A stretch of 64,000 nucleotides of DNA from Spirochaetales bacterium (GTDB lineage Bacteria > Spirochaetota > Spirochaetia > JABEVK01), in contig JBAXAI010000008.1 of NCBI GenBank assembly GCA_037142615.1, forward strand, positions 32,001 through 96,000. The letters run 5' to 3'. Positions 6,767 to 15,400 of this stretch are shown in pieces; the first letter of the stretch is position 1; each line of letters begins with the position of its first letter. Made by a program: the position numbers and the translations under genes. The notes beneath the pieces were generated by a model that was given only the letters and a program-made list of their open reading frames with translations, made no database searches and was not told the origin of the DNA.

Positions 6767-8758
6767 CTACACTTCGGCGAAAGTGAGCACTTCCCGGCGC
6801 GCGTCGGCGGCGACGACCTTGAGGGTCAGCGCGCCGCCGAGGGGGTGCTTGCGGGTGAGTTTGACCAAAGCGCGGTAACCCAAATCGGTCAGCAGGACCT
6901 GTGCTTGCGCTTCGTCGTCGCGGAACCACCCGACGATGACCGCCGGCCAGGTCTTTCCTTTTTGGCGGGCCAAATACTCGGTGATCCAGTAGCGGTCGGC
7001 GTTGCGCTCCAGACGGGCAGACTGCGCGTTCAAAGGATCGAGTTCAGCGGCCAAGGTGGCCAACGCTTCCGAGTCCAACGGGGGAACTTCACCTGCGGCC
7101 GCGGCCTTGAGCTGCCGGTGTACGGCCAAGTCGCCGTAGCGCCGGATGGGACTGGTCGCCTGAACGTAGCTCGGTAGGCCAAGGCCCGCGTGGGGACCGG
7201 CTTCCTGCGACAACAACGAACGCGTCATCGTCACGATCTTGCCAAACTCGCGGGCGGGTCCTTCGGGCAGGTGGCTCACGTCGACCGGGTCACCGGCGCG
7301 TTGCACCCGGTACAGCACGGGAATCTGTTTTTCCGCCGCAAAACGGGCTGCCGCTTCACCGGCCAGCACCATGAACTCGGCCACCCAATCCCGGGCAGCC
7401 TCGGCGGCGTAAACACCTACGTTTACCGTTCCTGCAGACAGATCAACTTTCACTTCCGACTCGGGGAGGTGGATCATCACCGCGCCCTGAGCGATTCGCC
7501 ACGCCTCACGCAAGCGGGCTGCGGTGGCGAGCGCGACGAGCAGTGGGTCACCCGCCGAAGCGAGCTCCTGGGCCTGCTGGTAGTTCAACCTGCGGTCGAC
7601 GCGGATGGTACTCGCCTCCACGGTGAGGTCGATCAACGCCCCGTCGGCGCCCAGCACACAACCGAAGCTCAGCGCGGCGCTTTCGACACCTGGCCTGAGG
7701 CTGAAAGGACCTTCGGCAAGGACAGGGGGAAACATGGTGAATCGGCCCGAGGGCAAGTACACCGTGGTGCCCCGACGGCGGGCTTCCAGGTCGAGAGCCG
7801 AATCGCGGGCAACCCAGTGTCCGGGGTCCGCAATGTGGATCCAGTACTTCAGCCTGCCGTCAGATAGCGTCTCAAGCGCCAAGGCGTCGTCCACCTCGGT
7901 CGTGGTGTCGTCGTCGATGGTCAGGCTGGCAAGGGCTGTCAGGTCGATCCGCGAACCGGAGTCCGGCGGTGCCCGGAGCAAAGACAACGCGGCAGCCTCC
8001 AACTCGGGTTCGAAGGCCGGGCTGAGACCCGCTCGAAGCACATCGAGGTTCTCGTGACGGTGCCAAAGCCCGAGGTCCACCAAAAACTGAAGGGCCGAGG
8101 CTTCGGTTTGAGGCCGGCCGGCCAGCTTGAGCAGATCCAGAGCGGCGTGCTTGTCCGCAGCCTCTTCGCCGAACAAAGCCAGCTTCTTCACGGCCTCGAA
8201 GCGTTCCAAGTCCTGGGGCTCCAGGTGGGAAGTTTTGTCGGCAAGGCGTGCTTCGAGGCGGCCGGCCAGTTCGGCCTGCAGCTTCTCTTTGGAGGCCAAG
8301 GCCGACTGTTGCTTGCGCAATTCCTCAACCTGACCAGCGGAACGGGCCTCAAAGCGCCCGCCTTTTTCCTTGAAAAACAACCGGTCGGCCTCAAGACTGG
8401 TGAAAAGTGCCCACGCCCGCTCGCCGGTGAGCGAATCCCACAGACAGCCGCCCAAAACCTCCAGCGAATACGGTCCTGGACCATCCGTCGAGAGGAGCTC
8501 CCAAACGGTAGCCAGATCCACGTCGCCCAGACAACCCTTGGCCTTCGTGGCCCAATCGTTCAGGCCCGAAGCGGTGACCCAAGGTTTGGGGTCGAGTTTC
8601 CATTCAGTCGTTGAGAACACGATATCGCGCTGTGCGACGGTGAGGCTGTTGCCAAAAGTGTCGGTAACGCGAAGCGAGTTCTTGCCTTCGGGACCCTCCA
8701 CGACGGCGAGACGTGGATGACCCTTGACAGGAAAAGAAACTACCGCGCCTTTTTCCAT
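6767..8758 (-). CDS. Ribonuclease II / RNB-domain exoribonuclease
   Basis: TIDDDTTTEVDDAL catalytic region, HIAD, TVYLP, HAGLG and ATSPIRRYGDL motifs. Confidence 0.9.
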   Translation of the reverse strand: MEKGAVVSFPVKGHPRLAVVEGPEGKNSLRVTDTFGNSLTVAQRDIVFSTTEWKLDPKPWVTASGLNDWATKAKGCLGDVDLATVWELLSTDGPGPYSLEVLGGCLWDSLTGERAWALFTSLEADRLFFKEKGGRFEARSAGQVEELRKQQSALASKEKLQAELAGRLEARLADKTSHLEPQDLERFEAVKKLALFGEEAADKHAALDLLKLAGRPQTEASALQFLVDLGLWHRHENLDVLRAGLSPAFEPELEAAALSLLRAPPDSGSRIDLTALASLTIDDDTTTEVDDALALETLSDGRLKYWIHIADPGHWVARDSALDLEARRRGTTVYLPSGRFTMFPPVLAEGPFSLRPGVESAALSFGCVLGADGALIDLTVEASTIRVDRRLNYQQAQELASAGDPLLVALATAARLREAWRIAQGAVMIHLPESEVKVDLSAGTVNVGVYAAEAARDWVAEFMVLAGEAAARFAAEKQIPVLYRVQRAGDPVDVSHLPEGPAREFGKIVTMTRSLLSQEAGPHAGLGLPSYVQATSPIRRYGDLAVHRQLKAAAAGEVPPLDSEALATLAAELDPLNAQSARLERNADRYWITEYLARQKGKTWPAVIVGWFRDDEAQAQVLLTDLGYRALVKLTRKHPLGGALTLKVVAADARREVLTFAEV

Positions 8759-9408
8759 TTCACTTTCGGGTCAACCATGAGATAGGCGTACCCAGTGGAC
8801 ATATCTTCGTTGTGGATCAGCACGCCCTTGATCCCGTCGGGGACCCTGAGTTTGACACTGGCGAAGTTCAAGACCTTTTTCACTCCGGCCAGCAGCACCT
8901 TGGTGCAGATCTCCTGAGCCTCGTGGGGTGGCACGGAGAGAATGGCAATTGTCACGGGATTCTTGCCCAGGAAGGGAGTCAGTTCGTCGATGTCACGCAC
9001 TTTGATGCCGTGGTATTTTTTGCCGACTTTGACCGGGTCGTTGTCGAACGCAGCGACGATGTTGAGGCCGTTCATGCGGAACTCGGCGTAGCCCAGCAAG
9101 GCGGTGCCCAGGTTTCCGCAGCCGATGATGATGGCGGGGTTGGTCTGATCCCAGCGAAGGAATCGCTCCAGGGCGGCGATCAGGTCTTTGACCACGTAGC
9201 CGACGCGTGGCTTTCCGACGATTCCGGTCACGGCAAGGTCTTTTCGCACCTGAATGGGCTCCAGGATGAGCTCTTCGGCGATCGTGGTTCCCGAAATGAC
9301 TAGAACTCCGTCCTTTTCGGCCTGCCGGACAATCTGCAGGTACGCAGGCAGTCGGAGGGTGGTGGGTTTGCTCGTCGCTTCCCTGTCTACGGTTCTGGAT
9401 CGTTTCAT
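8740..9408 (-). CDS. rex: Redox-sensing transcriptional repressor Rex
   Basis: RLPAYL, QVRKDL, G.P.VGY and Rossmann GCGNLG motifs. Confidence 0.92.
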   Translation of the reverse strand: MKRSRTVDREATSKPTTLRLPAYLQIVRQAEKDGVLVISGTTIAEELILEPIQVRKDLAVTGIVGKPRVGYVVKDLIAALERFLRWDQTNPAIIIGCGNLGTALLGYAEFRMNGLNIVAAFDNDPVKVGKKYHGIKVRDIDELTPFLGKNPVTIAILSVPPHEAQEICTKVLLAGVKKVLNFASVKLRVPDGIKGVLIHNEDMSTGYAYLMVDPKVKWKKAR

Positions 9409-9435
9409 GATTCTTTCACTTCCCTCCTACTAGAT

Positions 9436-10680
9436 TTAAAGGTTTAGCTCGATCTTGGCAAGGAGTTTCCGGGCAACCTCGGCCTTGCTTGCTTTGTCGA
9501 GACGTTCATGGTTCCCCTTGGCGTCGACAACCAGCAGTGAATTGGTGTCGGTACCAAACCCTTCTCCCGGCTTGCTGTCGTCGTTGGCAGCGATAAGGTC
9601 ACCCCCGGCCTGCGCCAACCGCGAAGTGGCGTCGGTCAGGAGGTCGGCTTCCGAGAGCCCGCTTTGAGCCCGGAAGACCACCAGATAGGTTGCTTTGTTC
9701 CAGCCCTTCACCTGATCGACGATTTTGGGCGTGGGCCGAAACTCGACCACCAGGTTGCCCGAACTGGTAGGGAGCTTCGTGGCCGAAGGGGCTACCGGCG
9801 TCCAGTCGCCCACGGCGGCGCAAGCGATGAACACTCGGGGACGCTCGGCTTCGACCAGCTTTCGGCAGGCGGCTTCCATGGCGGCAGAGGTTTCGGCGAC
9901 GACCAGTTCGACACCTGGGGGAACCGGAACCGAGAGCTTCCCCGAGACCACGATGACCCGCGCCCCCAAACGGAGCGCCGCCTCGGCAAGAGCCAGCCCC
10001 ATCCGGCCCGTCGAGTTGTTGGTGACAACCCGGATCGGATCGAGGTACTCGACAGTGCGCCCGGCGGTGATGATGACGGTTTGCCCCGCGAGTTTTCCGC
10101 TGGCAGGAACAAGGGCCTCCCGCACGGCCTGCAGAATCTCATCGTTGTCGGCGATCTTGGCCTTGCCTTCTTCCACCCGGGGGCCCAGCACGCGGATGCC
10201 GGCGCCTTCCAGACGCGCCAGGTTCGCCACCACGAAAGGGTGGGCATACATCGACTGGTGCATCGCCGGCACTACCAGCACGGGAAGGCCTTCGCCAAAG
10301 GCGGTGGTCACAAAAGTTGTCACCGGGGTGTCGTCGATGCCCGAAGCGATCTTGCCGACCGTGTTGGCGGTGGCCGGCGCGATCAAGAGCAAGTCTGCGT
10401 GCACCTTGACGTTTCCCACCAGGCTGACATGTTCAATCTGGCCGGTCAATTCGGTGATGGGCTTGTGGCCCGTGGCCCATTCCAGCAAGTTGGGATGGAC
10501 AAGCTGCGTGGCTGCGTGGCTCATTACGGGGTAAACTTGGGCGCCGTGGCGCATCAGCAGGCGGGCGAGGTCGACGCTTCGCACCGCAGCTACCGAACCG
10601 GTCACACCGAGCACGATGGTCTTGCCGGCGAGGCTTTGGCTCAGCGACCCGACAATATCGACCGAAGGGTGTTCGTTCAT
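9436..10680 (-). CDS. coaBC: Bifunctional phosphopantothenoylcysteine decarboxylase/synthetase, archaeal-like
   Basis: GVTGSVAA, APATANT, PAMH, TAGRTVEYLDPIR.VTNNSTG.MG motifs; the N-terminal HPS.DI.GS.S..L.GK and ELTGQIEHV segments resemble archaeal CoaBC. Confidence 0.95.
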   Translation of the reverse strand: MNEHPSVDIVGSLSQSLAGKTIVLGVTGSVAAVRSVDLARLLMRHGAQVYPVMSHAATQLVHPNLLEWATGHKPITELTGQIEHVSLVGNVKVHADLLLIAPATANTVGKIASGIDDTPVTTFVTTAFGEGLPVLVVPAMHQSMYAHPFVVANLARLEGAGIRVLGPRVEEGKAKIADNDEILQAVREALVPASGKLAGQTVIITAGRTVEYLDPIRVVTNNSTGRMGLALAEAALRLGARVIVVSGKLSVPVPPGVELVVAETSAAMEAACRKLVEAERPRVFIACAAVGDWTPVAPSATKLPTSSGNLVVEFRPTPKIVDQVKGWNKATYLVVFRAQSGLSEADLLTDATSRLAQAGGDLIAANDDSKPGEGFGTDTNSLLVVDAKGNHERLDKASKAEVARKLLAKIELNL

Positions 10681-11822
10681 CCAGCTACCTCCTGCAGGTC
10701 AGCGAGAAACTCTTTGAGAACACTCCGGGTCACGTGCGGCATGACAACAACGCGGAAACTATGCTGCCAGGTCGACAGCGCCCATCCTTTTTCGCGCAGC
10801 GAGGCCACCAGCAGAGGCGTCGGCATGTGCGTGCTGCGAACCCCGACCACGTTCACCTGGGGTTCGGCCAGCACCGGCTCCACACCCGAAATCTGGGTAA
10901 GGGCCTGCGTGAGGAAGCGCGAGAGTTCCATGGCTTCGGCGACGATGGCCGTGTAGCCGGGCACCCCGAGGTGTTTCATGACGGCCCAGACCGCTGCAAC
11001 CGCCGCCCCGGAGCGGGTGCCAACGAGGGTGTTTTGGCGCAATCGCCCGCCGGAAAGGTACTGAACGTCGGTCGCCGCCGTCCGTGCCAGCGTAGCATCC
11101 TTCCACAGGATCATGCCCGAGGGAATGGGCCCGCGCCCCATTTTGTGGGGGTCGGCCGTCAGGCTGCTCAGGCCCTCGGGCCACGAATACAACTCCGAGG
11201 CTCGGTTTTCAGGCAAAAAAGGAAGCACGAAGCCGCCGAACGAGGCGTCGAGATGAAAATACAACCCGTGGCGAAGGGCTAACGCGGCCAAGGCACCAAT
11301 GTCGTCGATGGCTCCCCACGCCGTCGTCCCGGCGATGCCGATCACGGCCAGGGTCTGGGGTGTGATGGCAGCTTCCATGCGGTCGAGGCGAACCCGGCCC
11401 CGGTCGTCGACGGGAACTCTCACGAGGTTGAGACCCATGAACGACGCGGCTTTGTCGAACGAATAGTGGGCCGAGGCCGGCAGAAGCACCTCGCGCTTAC
11501 CGGGCGACAACAGTCTCGCGGTCCAGAGGGCCAACAGGTTGGCCTCGGTTCCTCCGGTGACAATGCGTCCCGCCGCCAAGGGGTTGCCCCACCAAGTGCC
11601 CAGCAGTGAGCAGGCTTCGCGCTCCAGTTCAGCCAGACCGGGCACCAGCCCTTCGTCACCGATGTTGGTCTCGAGGGCCCGCATAAAGGCCTGTTCGGCC
11701 ACCGGGTGTGGCCGCGAGCACATCGATCCCAGAATCTTGCCCGAGGCGAAGGTCCAATCCCCGGCAAGCCTCCGGTCGAGTTCTTCCAGCACGGCTCGCG
11801 AAGAGTCCGCTCCGAGGCTAAT
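10677..11822 (-). CDS. mfnA: MfnA-like group II PLP-dependent decarboxylase (probable aspartate 1-decarboxylase making beta-alanine)
   Basis: ILGSMC, TNIGD.GL, TGGTEAN, SAHYSFDK, HLDASFGGF, DPHKMG (PLP Lys) and GTRSG motifs. Start is uncertain: ATT at 11822 behind AAGGAG, or GTG at 11792. Confidence 0.85.
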   Translation of the reverse strand: MSLGADSSRAVLEELDRRLAGDWTFASGKILGSMCSRPHPVAEQAFMRALETNIGDEGLVPGLAELEREACSLLGTWWGNPLAAGRIVTGGTEANLLALWTARLLSPGKREVLLPASAHYSFDKAASFMGLNLVRVPVDDRGRVRLDRMEAAITPQTLAVIGIAGTTAWGAIDDIGALAALALRHGLYFHLDASFGGFVLPFLPENRASELYSWPEGLSSLTADPHKMGRGPIPSGMILWKDATLARTAATDVQYLSGGRLRQNTLVGTRSGAAVAAVWAVMKHLGVPGYTAIVAEAMELSRFLTQALTQISGVEPVLAEPQVNVVGVRSTHMPTPLLVASLREKGWALSTWQHSFRVVVMPHVTRSVLKEFLADLQEVAG

Positions 11823-12603
11823 GATAGGACTCCTTGTCGGCTGGGTACGTCCCCGAGCGCACGTCGGCCGAAAACTCGCCCAAAACCGACTTGATGGCGT
11901 CACCCACATGGAGGTAGCGATCGGGAACAAACTTGGCCTTGCGGTGACTGTTGAGGTGCAGCAGGTCGTGGAACACCAGAACCTGGCCGCTGGTGTGCGC
12001 TCCGGCCCCGATGCCAATCGTCGGCAGACCAAGACCCCGCGTCACCGACTCTCCGAGCGACAGAGGAACACATTCCAGCACCACCGAAAAGCAACCCGCC
12101 GCGGCAAGGTCACGGGCGTCGGCGTCGATCGCGGCAGCGTCGGCAGCGTCTTTGCCCTGCACCTTGAACGAACCTGCCGTCTGGGGCAACAAACCCAAGT
12201 GACCCATCACCGGGATTCCGCTGGCGAGGATAGCCCTGGCGATGCCTGGAGCATTGCCCTCAAACTTGACCGCATCGGCCCCGCTGGCCATCAGCAGCTT
12301 GGACGACTCCACGGCCGCCTCGGGGGTATCGTAGGAGTGCAAGGGAAGGTCGGCGACAATCGGGATCACTTTGCGCCCCCGCGCGGCCATCCGGGTGTGG
12401 TACATCATGTGCTCGAGTGTCACGGCCGAGGTGGAATCGCGGCCCTGCTCGACCATGCCGAGGCTGTCACCCACCAGGATCAGGTCGGCGCCGGCGGCTT
12501 CGACCAGCTCGGCCTGCCACGCGTCGTAGGCGGTCAGAACGACGAGCTTGTGACCGGCCTTCCAGGCGTCCAGAAACGGCTGCAAACGCGGTGTAGAAAT
12601 CAC
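11818..12603 (-). CDS. panB: 3-methyl-2-oxobutanoate hydroxymethyltransferase
   Basis: LTAYD, LVGDSLGM, VMGHLGLLPQ, IGIGAG and GQVLV.HD motifs; GTG at 12603 with GGAG SD, GTGA overlap with the upstream stop. Confidence 0.96.
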   Translation of the reverse strand: MISTPRLQPFLDAWKAGHKLVVLTAYDAWQAELVEAAGADLILVGDSLGMVEQGRDSTSAVTLEHMMYHTRMAARGRKVIPIVADLPLHSYDTPEAAVESSKLLMASGADAVKFEGNAPGIARAILASGIPVMGHLGLLPQTAGSFKVQGKDAADAAAIDADARDLAAAGCFSVVLECVPLSLGESVTRGLGLPTIGIGAGAHTSGQVLVFHDLLHLNSHRKAKFVPDRYLHVGDAIKSVLGEFSADVRSGTYPADKESYH

Positions 12604-13370
12604 TTTTGTTCTCCTGCCAGGGCGTAGAGCCGGTCGGCCATGAACTTCAGGGCTTTTGCGAGATTGGCCCGGTTGTCCCAGGCACCCCAAAGTGCCTCAA
12701 GCTCGCCCCGGGGCCGGTTCTTGAGAGCCCCCGCTTCGCTGACCAGCAGAGGCAGCGCCCGCAGGATGTTGTCGACGATGGTCAAGTGCGACATCTTCGA
12801 GGTACGCGAAAGCGGGTTCAGGTCGATGGTCAGCACCGTCTTGCCGAGCTTGACCAGAGCCTCGGTTCGGTCCCCGTCTTCCAGCGGCACCAACACGGTG
12901 TCGGCGATGAGAATTCCTCGCGGCGACACGATGCGACGCGCGTGCTGAAGCTCATCGATCACAGCGCTGGCGTCGTCACCCACCCCGAGCACCTCGGTGG
13001 CCCCGGCGGCCCGCAGCGCGGCCTCGACCGCTTCTTCCCGTCCAGGCTTGCGGTAGAACAGGTTGACCTCGAGCCGGGCACCGGTGACTTTGGAAAGCTC
13101 AACGAGTTCGGCGGCCACCAGAGCGGCGGCGTTGCCGTTCACCGAGATGACAGGATGGGACGAGAGCAGCAGTTTCGCGGCAGCGGCGCGGCACGCTTCG
13201 CGGCCAAAATCGGCCGTTGCTTCACCCAAAAAGTAGTCCAGCGACTCACCCCTTCCGTGAGCGATCAGACCGGATTCGGTGACGACCAGGGAATGCAGTC
13301 CCTCGACGATCTTTTCGCGGCTCATCAACGAGGCGTAGCGCGGATGGCTGGTCGGAATCTCAATCAGCAT
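12600..13370 (-). CDS. Archaeal-type 4-phosphopantoate--beta-alanine ligase (phosphopantothenate synthetase, PPS; COG1701/DUF137)
   Basis: IP.SHPRY.SL..RE, GLIAHGRGE..DY..GE, PVISVNGN, EVNLFYR, VLVPLEDGDR.EAL and IDLNPLSRT motifs, all characteristic of archaeal PPS. Confidence 0.94.
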   Translation of the reverse strand: MLIEIPTSHPRYASLMSREKIVEGLHSLVVTESGLIAHGRGESLDYFLGEATADFGREACRAAAAKLLLSSHPVISVNGNAAALVAAELVELSKVTGARLEVNLFYRKPGREEAVEAALRAAGATEVLGVGDDASAVIDELQHARRIVSPRGILIADTVLVPLEDGDRTEALVKLGKTVLTIDLNPLSRTSKMSHLTIVDNILRALPLLVSEAGALKNRPRGELEALWGAWDNRANLAKALKFMADRLYALAGEQK

Positions 13371-14256
13371 GCAAAAGCCTCCCGCCCTGCAAGTCGAGCT
13401 GCGAAGAAAAAACGGTGCCTGAGCCCAACAAACGGAACGCCGCGAGCGCGCGCTCGGCGTCGAAACTCTCTACGAGGGTAAACAACCCATCGCCGAACAT
13501 CAGCATGGGAGCGGTGAACCCTTTGTCGGCGAGCAGGGTCTGGCAGCCGGTCAGCCGACCGCTGACGAGCTGCGTCTGGCGGCCAAAGCGAACCGAGAGT
13601 TCCAAGAAATGTTTCCACGACGGAGCGTCGAGCAGGGCCTGCCGAAAGGCCTCGCCTTCCCTGTTGACCGCCTCGCGGATGGCAGGGTTTCCCAGCATGG
13701 CCGAGGTGGCCAGCGGGCCCAAAACCAGGAAGACGGCGGTCAGACCGTCCGGAGTGGGCAGCGGTTGCACACGCCCCACCCCGGGTGCCCCTGGCTCGAG
13801 ACTGGCCTTGAAGCCGCCGTGGGCTTCACCCAGAACGGTTCCCAGGCCGGTTCCGCATTCAATTTCGGCCAGATGGGCCAGAGCCCCGGCCTGATCGGTC
13901 GAAAGTGGAGACCCCGCCAGGCCGTTGAGAGCCAGCGCAAGCGACAGCGCTCCGGCTCCCGAAGTGCCAAAACCGCAACCCACGGGGAGCGTCGTTTGGT
14001 GCTCGATGGCCACCGGTTGCGTCCAATTGGCCCTGGAGCGAAACAGGCGCAACACTGCGAGGGAAACCGGCGCATCGTCGAGAGTCTTGCCGCCAAGCTT
14101 CACAGAATCGGATTCTGCCGAAAAGACTTGGGTCTCAACCCCGAGGGCAAGGCTGAACCCCGCGCCGAGCGAACCGTGGTGAAGGGGGTCCGAATGGGGT
14201 CGAATCGAGAAGAACCCCGTGACATGACCGGGAGAAAAGGCGCGGGAAGAATGCAT
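13360..14256 (-). CDS. Archaeal-type pantoate kinase (PoK; GHMP kinase, COG1829)
   Basis: AFSPGHVTGFF, GSLGAG, GHMP loop PVGCGFGTSGA, AH.AEI...TGLG.V, PGAPG and MFG motifs; start placed at ATG 14256; overlaps PPS by 11 nt. Confidence 0.9.
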   Translation of the reverse strand: MHSSRAFSPGHVTGFFSIRPHSDPLHHGSLGAGFSLALGVETQVFSAESDSVKLGGKTLDDAPVSLAVLRLFRSRANWTQPVAIEHQTTLPVGCGFGTSGAGALSLALALNGLAGSPLSTDQAGALAHLAEIECGTGLGTVLGEAHGGFKASLEPGAPGVGRVQPLPTPDGLTAVFLVLGPLATSAMLGNPAIREAVNREGEAFRQALLDAPSWKHFLELSVRFGRQTQLVSGRLTGCQTLLADKGFTAPMLMFGDGLFTLVESFDAERALAAFRLLGSGTVFSSQLDLQGGRLLHAD

Positions 14257-14340
14257 GTAGTACCTTGGAACCCATGGTATTGTAAAAAGTTCCGTTTGAG
14301 AAGTGCGGGATTTTGCCGAAACTGGGAACAGGAGTCCTGT

Positions 14341-14856
14341 ATGAACCGTATGCTGGCCGTTGTGGTGTTTGTCGGGTGCAGCCTTTCCCCGCTGGCTTCC
14401 CAAGACTTGCCCGCCTCAGACCCGACCACCCTCACCGTGGCGCCGTCGGATCAGGTGAAGTACCCCGAAGCAAAGGACATCCTCAACCCCCTGCCTCCCC
14501 CGGCGCCCAAGGTAGTACCCAAAGCGGCACCCAAAGCAGCCGACAAACCCGTGGTCCCGGTGGTCAAGGTGGTTCCCGGTGGTCCGCTGCTGGCTTCGGC
14601 TCCGATTCCGGCCGTGGCTCCCGTGGCCGCCAAACCCGTGCCGCTTCATGGCTGGTTCATCGTGTGGTCGCTTTCGGGCTCCGCCGAGGCCGTGCAGACC
14701 TGGGTGGAGGGACTCCAAGCCGCCGTGCCCGCGTTGCCTGTGAAGGTTTCCGGCAAAGGTGCGGCGTGGACCGTAGAACTCGGTCCTGTCGATGCTCAAT
14801 CGCTCGACGCCGCGTGGGCCGTTCCGGGAGCTCGTCCCCGCCTCATCAAGAAGTAG
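14341..14856 (+). CDS. Exported hypothetical protein (Pro/Ala/Lys linker, SPOR-like C-terminus)
   Basis: ATG at 14341 with AGGAG SD; signal-like N-terminus; low-complexity linker. Confidence 0.6.
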   Translation: MNRMLAVVVFVGCSLSPLASQDLPASDPTTLTVAPSDQVKYPEAKDILNPLPPPAPKVVPKAAPKAADKPVVPVVKVVPGGPLLASAPIPAVAPVAAKPVPLHGWFIVWSLSGSAEAVQTWVEGLQAAVPALPVKVSGKGAAWTVELGPVDAQSLDAAWAVPGARPRLIKK

Positions 14857-15325
14857 AGGAACCTCGCCGGCTGGTCAAACGGACGAGTGTCATGAAAGTG
14901 GCGTCGAAGGTTCGGACAAAACGGTCCCACTCCTTTTTTCCGTAGACCGCCGTCGATTCCGGTTTGAGCCCTGCCGCGTTCAAGCCCGCCATAAAATCCC
15001 TCACGGACAGGCGCTCACGGATGTTTTCGGCCGTATAAAGCGCGCCCCGGTCGTTAAGAACGGCCACACCCAGTTCCACCAACCGCGAAGCCAGGGGAAT
15101 GTCGCGGGTGACAACGAGGTCGCCCGGTAGAGCCCTCGCAACCAGGGCGTCGTCGGCCGCGCCTTCGGTAGCCGCCACGACTTCCATCGTAATCGCGAGG
15201 TCCGCACGAAACGGAATGGGCCGGTTGGCAAAGCAGGTCACGGGCACCCCTTCGCGGCGACCAGCCTTGGCAACGACCTCGCGTACCGCGCGTGGGCAAC
15301 TGTCCCCATCAATCAGAACTTGCAT
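14846..15325 (-). CDS. YaiI/YqxD (DUF188) family protein
   Basis: IDGDSCP, AADD, GDLVVTRDIPLA and G..YT..NI.ERL..RD motifs. Confidence 0.9.
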   Translation of the reverse strand: MQVLIDGDSCPRAVREVVAKAGRREGVPVTCFANRPIPFRADLAITMEVVAATEGAADDALVARALPGDLVVTRDIPLASRLVELGVAVLNDRGALYTAENIRERLSVRDFMAGLNAAGLKPESTAVYGKKEWDRFVRTFDATFMTLVRLTSRRGSSTS

Positions 15326-15400
15326 ACGTCATCCTACGTTCGAGGCAAGACCTTGGCCAACCCCCTTTCTTTTTGGTGCGAGGGCCGTTAGCATGGCGAC

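Follow-up and report, generated by a model that had tools for sequence, protein, structure and literature searches.

A freshwater spirochaete appears to build the precursor of coenzyme A with an operon of archaeal-type enzymes

In place of the usual bacterial set of enzymes, a freshwater spirochaete (Spirochaetales bacterium, GCA_037142615.1) appears to rely on archaeal-type enzymes, encoded in one operon, to make its coenzyme A (CoA) precursor. Other bacteria have PanC and PanK at the place held here by the PoK/PPS route. The operon lies in a window of 64,000 nt (contig JBAXAI010000008.1, positions 32,001-96,000), where five co-directional minus-strand ORFs occupy positions 9436-14403; from their likely starts the genes cover 9436-14256 (Table 1). 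We consider it likely that these genes make 4'-phosphopantetheine in the archaeal order of reactions, and that their core came once from an archaeon and was then passed on vertically. PanB would form ketopantoate, which a reductase, probably IlvC, would convert to pantoate. The GHMP kinase would phosphorylate pantoate, and PPS would join beta-alanine, supplied from aspartate by the MfnA-type decarboxylase, to 4-phosphopantoate. CoaBC would then add cysteine and carry out a decarboxylation, and bacterial CoaD and CoaE, encoded elsewhere, would complete CoA. The PoK-PPS(-PanB)-CoaBC core would go back to a single old transfer into an ancestor within the source genome's spirochaete class, where it would have stood in for PanC and PanK ever since, with MfnA as a variable addition.

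Table 1. Features of the operon and its surroundings (positions within the window)
Feature	Position	Strand	Remarks
PoK-like GHMP kinase	13360..14256	-	298 aa from ATG 14256; ORF extends to 14403
PPS, 4-phosphopantoate--beta-alanine ligase	12600..13370	-	256 aa, ATG 13370
PanB, ketopantoate hydroxymethyltransferase	11818..12603	-	261 aa from GTG 12603; ORF 11818-12690
MfnA-type group II PLP decarboxylase	10677..11792	-	371 aa from GTG 11792; ORF 10677-12032
CoaBC, bifunctional PPCS/PPCDC	9436..10680	-	414 aa, ATG 10680
Rex-like regulator	8740..9408	-	PF02629 and PF06971 matches
RNase II	6767-8758		operon neighbour
YaiI/DUF188	14846-15325		operon neighbour
Divergent intergenic region, presumed promoter region	14257..14340	.	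84 nt upstream of PoK

The sequence-only reading had described five same-strand genes with overlapping starts and stops. The shared strand was borne out, and three of the four junctions overlap (PoK/PPS by 11 nt, PPS/PanB as GTGA, MfnA/CoaBC as ATGA); the exception is PanB/MfnA, with a 25-nt gap if MfnA starts at GTG 11792, an uncertain start without a Shine-Dalgarno sequence. Upstream of the starts of PPS, PanB and CoaBC we found GGGAGG, AGGAG and AGGAGG, respectively. The intergenic region upstream of PoK is bounded by the PoK start codon on one side and on the other by position 14341, where a plus-strand ORF begins, and its 84 nt contain neither a sigma-70 consensus match nor an Rfam family. 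The neighbours rex, RNase II and yaiI had been named correctly. The Rex-like gene follows CoaBC after 27 nt on the same strand, and no terminator-like site was found between the two. It is possibly co-transcribed with the operon, while lying outside the pathway, and a Rex-like gene also follows the operon in loci of family f1 (L009/L131, L010/L132, L011, L133, L135 and L015).

The host genome is a draft of 76 contigs (96.74% complete, contamination estimate 2.24%), and the operon might owe its presence to a chimeric assembly or to a contig from a contaminating archaeon that was binned with a spirochaete. However, the operon sits between spirochaete-type genes on a contig no shorter than 96 kb, and the arrangement YaiI-operon-Rex-RNase II is kept in relatives (L009/L131, L010/L132, L011 and L133). 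Independent metagenome contigs of runs X1, X2 and X3, which come from three studies, cover the operon at 99% identity or more and span both junctions, rex/CoaBC and PoK/upstream. The operon also recurs in complete single-contig genomes, among them G520, G599 and G689. As far as present data reach, the conserved flanks, bridging contigs and complete genomes refute this explanation, to which we assign a practically negligible probability.

HMM and PDB matches confirmed the presence of the archaeal-type PoK-like, PPS and MfnA-type genes. The GHMP kinase matches PF00288 with 36.6 bits, and its best NCBIfam models are two pantoate-kinase models, both scoring below their cut-offs (NF040725, 114 vs 380; NF041122, 102.6 vs 500). 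Its sole PDB match at E<=0.01 is the T. kodakarensis pantoate kinase 6jbc (E 3.8e-29), with residues 5-271 aligned to residues 4-273 of the structure. PPS scores 228.3 bits against PF02006 (cut-off 26.4) and 333.4 against NF010324 (cut-off 227), and falls slightly below the cut-off of the equivalog NF041123 (292.6 vs 300). It aligns over its full length with the T. kodakarensis PPS structure 3wdk (E 1.6e-71) and is 60-62% identical to Thermogladius/Desulfurococcaceae PPS. Both proteins hence belong to the same families as the T. kodakarensis enzymes (TK2141/TK1686 type), although the spirochaete PoK is divergent. In particular, all 11 spirochaete PoK proteins aligned carry Thr at the position of T. 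kodakarensis PoK Asp143 (GLGD), a residue that probably matters.

Since the activities of PoK and PPS are predicted from sequence, archaeal-type enzymes might also work in the bacterial order, with PPS making pantothenate and the kinase phosphorylating it or acting on another substrate. The sub-cut-off HMM scores and the Thr variant would fit such a scheme. On the contrary, the only structural relative of the kinase is a pantoate kinase, PPS aligns end to end with a solved 4-phosphopantoate ligase, and the same Thr occurs in Micrarchaeia and Nitrosocosmicus PoK that adjoin PPS (L013, L014). Furthermore, the characterised archaeal homologues act in the order PoK, then PPS, as stated in two sources (PMC6650551, PMC7883664). 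We therefore regard the bacterial order as quite improbable.

The remaining operon proteins scored above the cut-offs of their family models. PanB matches PF02548 (275.6 bits) and TIGR00222 (242.4, cut-off 207.55), and CoaBC, the sole CoaBC match in the host genome, contains both Pfam domains and reaches 354.7 bits with TIGR00521 (cut-off 219.7). The MfnA-type protein scores 373.8 bits with TIGR03812 (cut-off 299.4), and in the PDB it comes closest to MfnA (3f9t) and to the L-tyrosine/L-aspartate decarboxylase 6jy1 (E about 5e-63); its DPHKMG lysine block lines up with theirs. Its named non-spirochaete neighbours are Bathyarchaeota and a Hydrothermota bacterium (48-49% identity). We presume that it is an aspartate decarboxylase giving beta-alanine.

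As expected, panC, panD and coaA/coaX were not found in the 96.7%-complete host genome: PanC, PanD and CoaX gave no match, and CoaA, with a cut-off of 235, reached 23.8 bits. CoaX was likewise found in none of five other PPS-bearing genomes. The negative result for pantothenate kinases covers CoaA and CoaX, since the control in the search for type II PanK matched nowhere. A PanE-type (ApbA_C-type) reductase was not found in the host genome, and KARI (IlvC) is present. As in the archaeal PoK/PPS route, an MfnA/GAD-type PLP decarboxylase replaces the pyruvoyl PanD. Unlike in archaea, the last steps fall to bacterial CoaD (169.7 bits) and CoaE (71.1 bits), and not to archaeal PPAT and a GTP-dependent DPCK.

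The operon, first noticed in a single spirochaete, is not peculiar to it. We used one sample of 401 genomes across the phylum and a separate one of 401 genomes of the source genome's class. PPS was found in 7 genomes of the phylum sample, all from this class, compared to 276 with PanC. Within the class sample, PPS without PanC was found in 58 genomes (about one in seven; 28 of 156 genera) and PanC without PPS in 56; the other 287 have neither, and none has both. Among 40 further spirochaete loci, 39 have PoK adjoining PPS, mostly in the same operon, and the order PoK-PPS-PanB-MfnA-CoaBC was seen in 24 of 49 distinct loci. At one of the further loci CoaBC matches a protein named Sediminispirochaeta by its source. 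MfnA is a variable insert. Neither MfnA nor PanD was found in 12 of the 16 PPS-bearing genomes without operon MfnA, and hence beta-alanine supply is not uniform.

A concatenated PoK+PPS+CoaBC tree gathers 35 spirochaete operons in a single clade (SH-aLRT 98), whose branching follows the host family codes; f1 (96), f6 (100), f68 (95) and f9 (92) are each monophyletic. The sister group of the whole clade is made up of five archaeal operons in the order PoK-PPS-PanB-CoaBC (91). The PoK tree likewise unites 48 spirochaete rows (87) and joins them to seven archaeal PoK (95). In the PPS tree (79 rows) the spirochaetes are not a single clade in the best tree, and the starred branches permit one. One could argue that this bacterial lineage had PoK and PPS from its ancestors, without acquiring them from archaea, and retained them vertically: the operon tree follows the host families, the PoK and PPS trees have no outgroup root, and the composition is fully host-like (at 0.0128 the tetranucleotide distance is below the median of 0.0139, and 62% of random windows lie farther from the genome mean), in agreement with the codon style remarked on earlier. 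We consider this very improbable, since within the phylum sample PPS is confined to one class, the spirochaete PoK and concatenated operons group with one archaeal subset and not outside all archaea, and the CoaBC tree, for which bacterial sequences can provide a root, places the spirochaete proteins within archaeal CoaBC.

Transfer from an archaeon leaves the question of how much of the operon came at once. The genes might have been assembled piecemeal, with only PoK-PPS, and perhaps MfnA, of archaeal origin and PanB and/or CoaBC recruited from bacteria in the spirochaete. PanB points in this direction. Operon-linked PanB falls into two clades and is not placed with archaea; family f6 has the order PoK-PPS-CoaBC-PanB and a PanB clade of its own; and f3 genomes have PoK-PPS alone, with PanB and PanD 6 kb off and PanB grouping weakly with bacterial PanB. 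An AU test on an 81-row CoaBC tree also failed to reject archaeal monophyly (p 0.372). CoaBC itself argues otherwise. The CoaBC of 40 PPS-linked operons group in a single clade, which a split with support of 99-100 places with archaea and apart from the E. coli protein and 29 further CoaBC of Spirochaetota. In our most careful tree, non-PPS bacteria separate from the rest (100/99), the spirochaete clade (97/98) lies within archaeal CoaBC (99/95), and archaea are monophyletic in none of 200 bootstrap trees. Identities of the operon CoaBC are 33-45% to archaeal and 27-37% to Spirochaetota CoaBC (91-genome sample). CoaBC thus looks archaeal, as had been suspected, and a piecemeal bacterial origin for it is unlikely.

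The archaeal sample comprised one phylum and a few named matches, with Euryarchaeota and Poribacteria outside it, and in it PoK, PPS, PanB and CoaBC stand co-directionally in this order in 7 of 22 loci examined. With this sampling the donor is narrowed down to no particular archaeal group, and a step from one bacterium to another may have intervened. Given the archaeal gene order, the operon was probably not assembled in the bacterium, as the sequence-only reading had it, and we judge piecemeal assembly as a whole to be unlikely. The transfer of a nearly whole pathway between domains probably holds for PoK, PPS and CoaBC, may include PanB, and does not extend to the bacterial CoaD and CoaE. 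The archaeal clusters (L014, a Candidatus Nitrosocosmicus record, and L043-L048), sister to the spirochaete operons in the PoK and concatenated trees, are identical to them in order and direction apart from the MfnA that usually stands between PanB and CoaBC in spirochaetes. Identities between the two are modest (PoK 25-35%, CoaBC 33-45%, PPS 46-60%).

Use of the archaeal route by bacteria has a published precedent in Entoporibacteria, which have PoK and PPS without PanC/PanK, a bacterial DPCK, and KARI but no classical KPR (Thomes and Lescure, 2020, Genome Biol Evol, PMC7883664). The spirochaete host is similar in its PoK and PPS, bacterial CoaE and KARI, and in that PanC, CoaX and classical KPR were not found in its genome. 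It differs in belonging to another phylum, where the trait occurs widely within a class, one of whose genera is cultured and named, and in having the genes in one operon with MfnA and a CoaBC of archaeal affinity, while poribacterial CoaBC was reported to be a homologue of the E. coli protein (PMC7883664). So far, the precedent in print for such a swap comes only from these sponge-symbiont Poribacteria. A mirror image is offered by Picrophilus torridus/Thermoplasmatales, archaea that have a bacterial-type PanK according to PMC7883664 and PMC6650551; their CoA pathway is likewise a cross-domain mosaic, with the replacement in the opposite direction.

Five consecutive open reading frames on the minus strand fill window 9436-14403. 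The genome that holds the window (G000; 4.27 Mb in 76 contigs; window at C8:32001-96000) is rated 96.74% complete and 2.24% contaminated. The sequence-only reading had described five same-strand genes with overlapping starts and stops, and the ORF map, the HMM matches and an inspection of the start codons bore this out. PoK and PPS overlap by 11 nt, PPS and PanB meet in GTGA and the MfnA and CoaBC genes in ATGA, and the gap between PanB and the MfnA gene is 25 nt, provided that GTG 11792 is the MfnA start.

Coordinates of the operon genes, neighbouring and related features, and metagenome contigs (window positions unless a genome or locus is named)
Feature	Position	Strand	Basis
PoK	start ATG 14256	-	start-codon inspection
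PPS	start ATG 13370	-	start-codon inspection
PanB	start GTG 12603	-	start-codon inspection
MfnA-type decarboxylase	start GTG 11792, uncertain	-	start-codon inspection
CoaBC	start ATG 10680	-	start-codon inspection
Rex-like redox regulator	8740-9408	-	
171-aa predicted ORF	14341-14856	+	
KARI ORF	G000:C26:41995-42807		
PPS match in two pieces	L014 6001-6733		
Run X1 contigs	8600-10216, 10531-12968, 12970-15400		
Run X2 contigs	9360-12573, 13685-15400		
Run X3 contigs	9025-10415, 12246-14284		

In the HMM search suggested by the sequence-only reading, PPS and the MfnA-type decarboxylase scored above the model cut-offs, and pantoate-kinase models were the best for PoK, though below their cut-offs. 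PPS reached 228.3 bits with PF02006 (cut-off 26.4) and 333.4 with NF010324 (cut-off 227), and fell just under the cut-off of 300 of the narrower archaeal equivalog NF041123 (292.6 bits). It aligned end to end with the Thermococcus kodakarensis 4-phosphopantoate--beta-alanine ligase 3wdk (E 1.6e-71; residues 3-254 against 2-252) and also matched a second solved structure, 4mb0 (E 7.7e-70). The protein is predicted to ligate 4-phosphopantoate and beta-alanine in an ATP-dependent reaction. PoK scored 114 bits with NF040725 and 102.6 with NF041122, which require 380 and 500 bits, respectively. These were still its two best NCBIfam models, and the mevalonate, shikimate and homoserine kinase models gave at most 26 bits. 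Furthermore, its sole PDB relative at E<=0.01 was the T. kodakarensis pantoate kinase 6jbc/6jbd (E 3.8e-29), aligned over nearly the full length (residues 5-271 against 4-273 of 6jbc). PoK adjoins PPS in the window and in all but one of 40 further spirochaete loci; among the archaeal loci it lay inside the fetched stretch in 22 of 22, often adjoining PPS. This GHMP kinase scores below the current pantoate-kinase cut-offs and probably goes unnamed in the annotation of these genomes. Public annotation does name some of the operon genes in Spirochaetales MAGs, as '4-phosphopantoate--beta-alanine ligase' and 'tyrosine decarboxylase MfnA'.

The catalytic residues of T. kodakarensis PoK are, as we assume, Ser104, Glu134 and Asp143. 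In the alignment the spirochaete PoK proteins kept the Ser of the GFGxS motif and the Glu, and the position of Asp143 (GLGD) was occupied by Thr (GLGT) in all 11 spirochaete sequences aligned. The same Thr was found in the PPS-adjacent PoK of two archaeal records, L014 (Candidatus Nitrosocosmicus) and L013 (Micrarchaeia); most other archaeal PoK aligned kept the Asp. In L014 the PPS match is split into two pieces (residues 3-60 and 66-244), as is the MfnA match of the spirochaete locus L116 (genome G595), and both splits may reflect a frameshift, an insertion or a sequencing error.

The remaining three proteins were identified with models above their cut-offs. PanB matched TIGR00222 with 242.4 bits (cut-off 207.55) and NF001452 with 274.7 (cut-off 272). 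The group II PLP decarboxylase matched the MfnA equivalog TIGR03812 over model positions 2-375 (373.8 bits, cut-off 299.4). Its closest PDB entries were MfnA 3f9t and the L-tyrosine/L-aspartate decarboxylase 6jy1 (E ~5e-63), and the PLP-lysine block DPHKMG was aligned. Since 24 of 49 loci have the gene between those of PanB and CoaBC, and PanD gave no match here, we infer from this context that the enzyme decarboxylates aspartate to beta-alanine. CoaBC, matched only once in G000, scored 354.7 bits with TIGR00521 (cut-off 219.7), with PF02441 at residues 20-189 and PF04127 at residues 197-384. A database protein of 724 aa (P0240), 51% identical to the window CoaBC, carries both CoaBC domains (PF04127, PF02441) together with PF02006 and looks like a CoaBC-PPS fusion.

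We then consider the rest of the pathway in G000. Profile searches of this nearly complete assembly gave no match for PanC, PanD or type III PanK (CoaX), and the best match for type I PanK (CoaA) reached just 23.8 bits against a cut-off of 235; the absence of panC, panD and coaA/coaX that the sequence-only reading had proposed to check is thus borne out at these cut-offs. The search for type II PanK (PF03630), also without a match, carries no weight, since its control matched in 0 of 14 genomes. Elsewhere the genome encodes bacterial CoaE and CoaD, matched with 71.1 and 169.7 bits, respectively. The archaeal-type operon stands together with these bacterial enzymes, and PanC, PanD and PanK of types I and III gave no match above cut-off; we conclude that the CoA pathway is a mosaic whose early steps are archaeal-type and encoded in one operon and whose final steps are bacterial. 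The activities of the enzymes and the order of their reactions are those predicted from sequence. No PanE-type ketopantoate reductase (ApbA_C) was found in G000, and ketol-acid reductoisomerase (KARI, IlvC) was present (KARI_C, 71.3 bits) and is its presumed stand-in. At 495 aa and with two matches to KARI_C, the KARI ORF is of the long, class II-like type.

Close relatives of the window PPS came from records titled Spirochaetales, Spirochaetes or Spirochaetaceae bacterium. Among 401 genomes across the phylum Spirochaetota, PPS was found in 7, all of them in the window's class Spirochaetia, and PanC in 276. A sample of 401 genomes of the class contained PPS in 58 (44 of 306 high-quality genomes; 28 of 156 genera) and PanC in 56, and this breadth of the archaeal-type route is new. 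The two enzymes never occurred together: 58 genomes had PPS only, 56 PanC only and 287 neither, which adds weight to a published remark that the two routes are not seen together. Type III PanK was absent from all five other PPS carriers searched. By family code the occurrence of PPS was nearly all-or-none, with 10 of 11 genomes plus the window in f1, 3 of 3 in f3, 6 of 6 in f9 and 15 of 17 in f68; f6 had 11 of 20, and several smaller families also carry PPS. The CoaBC of one operon locus (L111) is contained in a database protein (P0219) named Sediminispirochaeta by its source, and therefore the five-gene operon seems to be present in a cultured, named genus, which may open it to direct biochemistry and genetics.

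Gene order was compared by mapping the five proteins onto the PPS surroundings of 6 and a further 40 genomes, which together with the window and named MAG loci gave 49 distinct loci.

Order of the five genes at 49 spirochaete PPS loci
Order	Loci	Family codes
PoK-PPS-PanB-MfnA-CoaBC	24	f1, f9, f68, f87, f90
PoK-PPS-PanB-CoaBC	3	
PoK-PPS-CoaBC-PanB	9	all f6
PoK-PPS-MfnA(-CoaBC)	3	f101
PoK-PPS(-PanB)-MfnA	4	f107
(PoK-)PPS-CoaBC	2	
PoK-PPS alone	3	f3
Cut by end of fetched stretch	1	

Beta-alanine supply varied among the carriers. None of the 16 carriers without an operon MfnA had an MfnA match above cut-off. Pyruvoyl PanD was found in four of these 16 (f3 3/3, f97 1/1), and neither enzyme in the other 12 (G524, G564, G599, G668, G689, G675, G612, G659, G624, G579, G647 and G405). 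An MfnA-like decarboxylase with 138 bits is present in G524. This range of supply (MfnA, PanD, neither) raises a concrete question about the source of beta-alanine. The f3 genomes combine PoK and PPS of archaeal type with a bacterial PanD. In two of them (L016 and L017, from G094 and G030) PanB, a CoaC-like stretch and then pyruvoyl PanD lie in this order about 6 kb from PoK-PPS; the match of this CoaC-like stretch to the window CoaBC has two TGA codons and a weak CoaB part.

Where the operon came from was addressed with identities and trees. The window PPS is 60-62% identical to that of Thermogladius/Desulfurococcaceae and 46-60% across 22 archaeal loci. Seven of these 22 (L014, L043-L048) carry a co-directional PoK-PPS-PanB-CoaBC, the window order minus MfnA. 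CoaBC is 33-45% identical to archaeal CoaBC and 27-37% to Spirochaetota CoaBC from a 91-genome sample. Rows with stops, or with tblastn matches below 70% (first batch) or 80% (second batch) query coverage, were removed from the trees, a filter that also drops split CoaB/CoaC genes, the L043 CoaBC and the L014 PPS. Duplicates were removed as well (L090, equal to L017, and L091, equal to L016), and the concatenated tree omits L131 and L132, which duplicate L009 and L010. In a quick CoaBC tree of 81 rows, 40 operon-linked spirochaete sequences formed one clade (SH-aLRT 96). A careful tree of 42 rows, built without the long-branch L052 and L078 and without every second bacterial row, split 13 other Spirochaetota and E. 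coli from all else (100/99) and placed the spirochaete-operon clade (97/98) within archaeal CoaBC (99/95). None of the 200 bootstrap trees of this data set recovered the archaea as monophyletic; an AU test on the quick tree, however, did not reject their monophyly (p 0.372). In these trees CoaBC groups with archaeal CoaBC, in line with the archaeal look that the sequence-only reading had ascribed to it.

The PoK tree placed 48 spirochaete rows in one clade (87), joined to seven archaeal PoK from operons of the same gene order (95). Concatenation of PoK, PPS and CoaBC likewise gave one clade of 35 spirochaete operons (98), whose sister was a group of five archaeal operons of the same order (91) and in which four family codes were each monophyletic (f1 96, f6 100, f68 95, f9 92). 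Of the phylogenies proposed earlier for all five proteins, those of CoaBC and PoK, like the concatenation, place the spirochaete sequences with archaeal ones, but PPS, PanB and MfnA give no clear origin. A 58-row PPS tree has one branch with a support of 97 that parts spirochaetes and unnamed rows from archaea; with 79 rows the backbone collapses, and PPS alone names no donor. Neither the 54-row nor the 86-row PanB tree settled its origin, and operon-linked PanB fell into two clades. The nearest named outsiders of MfnA were Bathyarchaeota and one Hydrothermota bacterium (48-49% identity). In a FastTree analysis of 150 top hits without outgroup, spirochaete MfnA was mixed with a clade that holds two named Bathyarchaeota and one Hydrothermota bacterium, and no direction was readable.

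The trees and the same-order archaeal operons indicate that the inter-domain transfer proposed by the sequence-only reading is largely right. A ready-made archaeal operon including CoaBC may have moved, beyond just two enzymes. The scheme would comprise a single ancient transfer in which a PoK-PPS(-PanB)-CoaBC operon passed from an archaeon to a spirochaete, and vertical descent thereafter; the operon would later have been rearranged in f6 and partly lost in f3, and MfnA gained or lost. The archaeal sample behind this scheme, one phylum and a few named hits, includes no Euryarchaeota or Asgard genomes and does not fix the donor, and the bacterial rows include no Poribacteria. We give slightly better than even odds to a reading in which a whole archaeal PoK-PPS-PanB-CoaBC operon entered an early spirochaete of the class in a single event and became the sole phosphopantetheine route of a large, ecologically diverse and partly cultured clade, whose families plugged in differing beta-alanine sources (MfnA, PanD or other).

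The data at hand speak against an assembly chimera. Both operon ends are bridged by contigs of three metagenome studies that match at >=99% identity, and the flanking order YaiI-operon-Rex-RNase II recurs in f1 relatives. One of the bridging runs may be the source sample of G000. Ten studies have freshwater and lake metagenome runs in which the operon stretch as such was found. Composition is close to that of the host, as the sequence-only reading had noted for codon style: the operon lies at a tetranucleotide distance of 0.0128 from the genome mean, below the random-window median of 0.0139 (62% of windows are farther), and its GC content, 0.640 where the genome has 0.608, is reached by 10% of random 4.8-kb windows. 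A metatranscriptome run (X16, same sample as X1) yielded six contigs of 156-254 nt within rex, MfnA, PanB, PPS and PoK, compatible with transcription of the operon and also with DNA carry-over; stretches without a contig are uninformative.

PoK and PPS have long been treated as archaeon-specific markers, and one passage of a published account calls them unique to archaea (PMC6650551). One bacterial exception is in print, the Entoporibacteria, uncultured sponge symbionts with PoK and PPS for which transfer from archaea was proposed (Thomes and Lescure, PMC7883664). They resemble G000 in having both enzymes and lacking PanC and PanK (in G000, PanK of types I and III), and also in keeping bacterial DPCK and PPAT, with KARI and no classical KPR (PMC7883664). 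The interpretation by the sequence-only reading, that of CoaBC too, stands in large part, and the feature itself is real; a bacterial precedent exists. The route has been known in bacteria since 2020, and the spirochaetes are a second, much larger and partly cultured bacterial group. In the open-access literature searched, no paper joined pantoate kinase to spirochaetes or mentioned COG1701 or COG1829, and none of the related papers dealt with spirochaetes, judged by titles and the starts of abstracts. If the single-transfer reading is true, this would be the largest bacterial lineage known to run archaeal chemistry, and with cultured strains the mutual exclusion of the routes and the site of CoA feedback without PanK would become testable in bacteria.

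The operon is surrounded by genes for a Rex-like regulator, RNase II, YaiI/DUF188 and a GGDEF protein, the first three of which the sequence-only reading had correctly named as bacterial neighbors. A scan of the operon region was uninformative, with no promoter-like and four terminator-like sites (shuffle mean 7.5), and an Rfam search of the region returned only a chance snoRNA match (E 0.75). The Rex-like gene begins 27 nt after CoaBC, a place kept in f1 relatives, and the terminator scan found no terminator-like site between the two; through this gene, redox sensing and CoA synthesis could be linked. Divergent from PoK at 84 nt lies a predicted ORF of 171 aa without a Pfam match. It has GGAG upstream and a lipoprotein-signal-like N-terminus (Cys after a hydrophobic stretch), and shares 11 nt with the end of yaiI.
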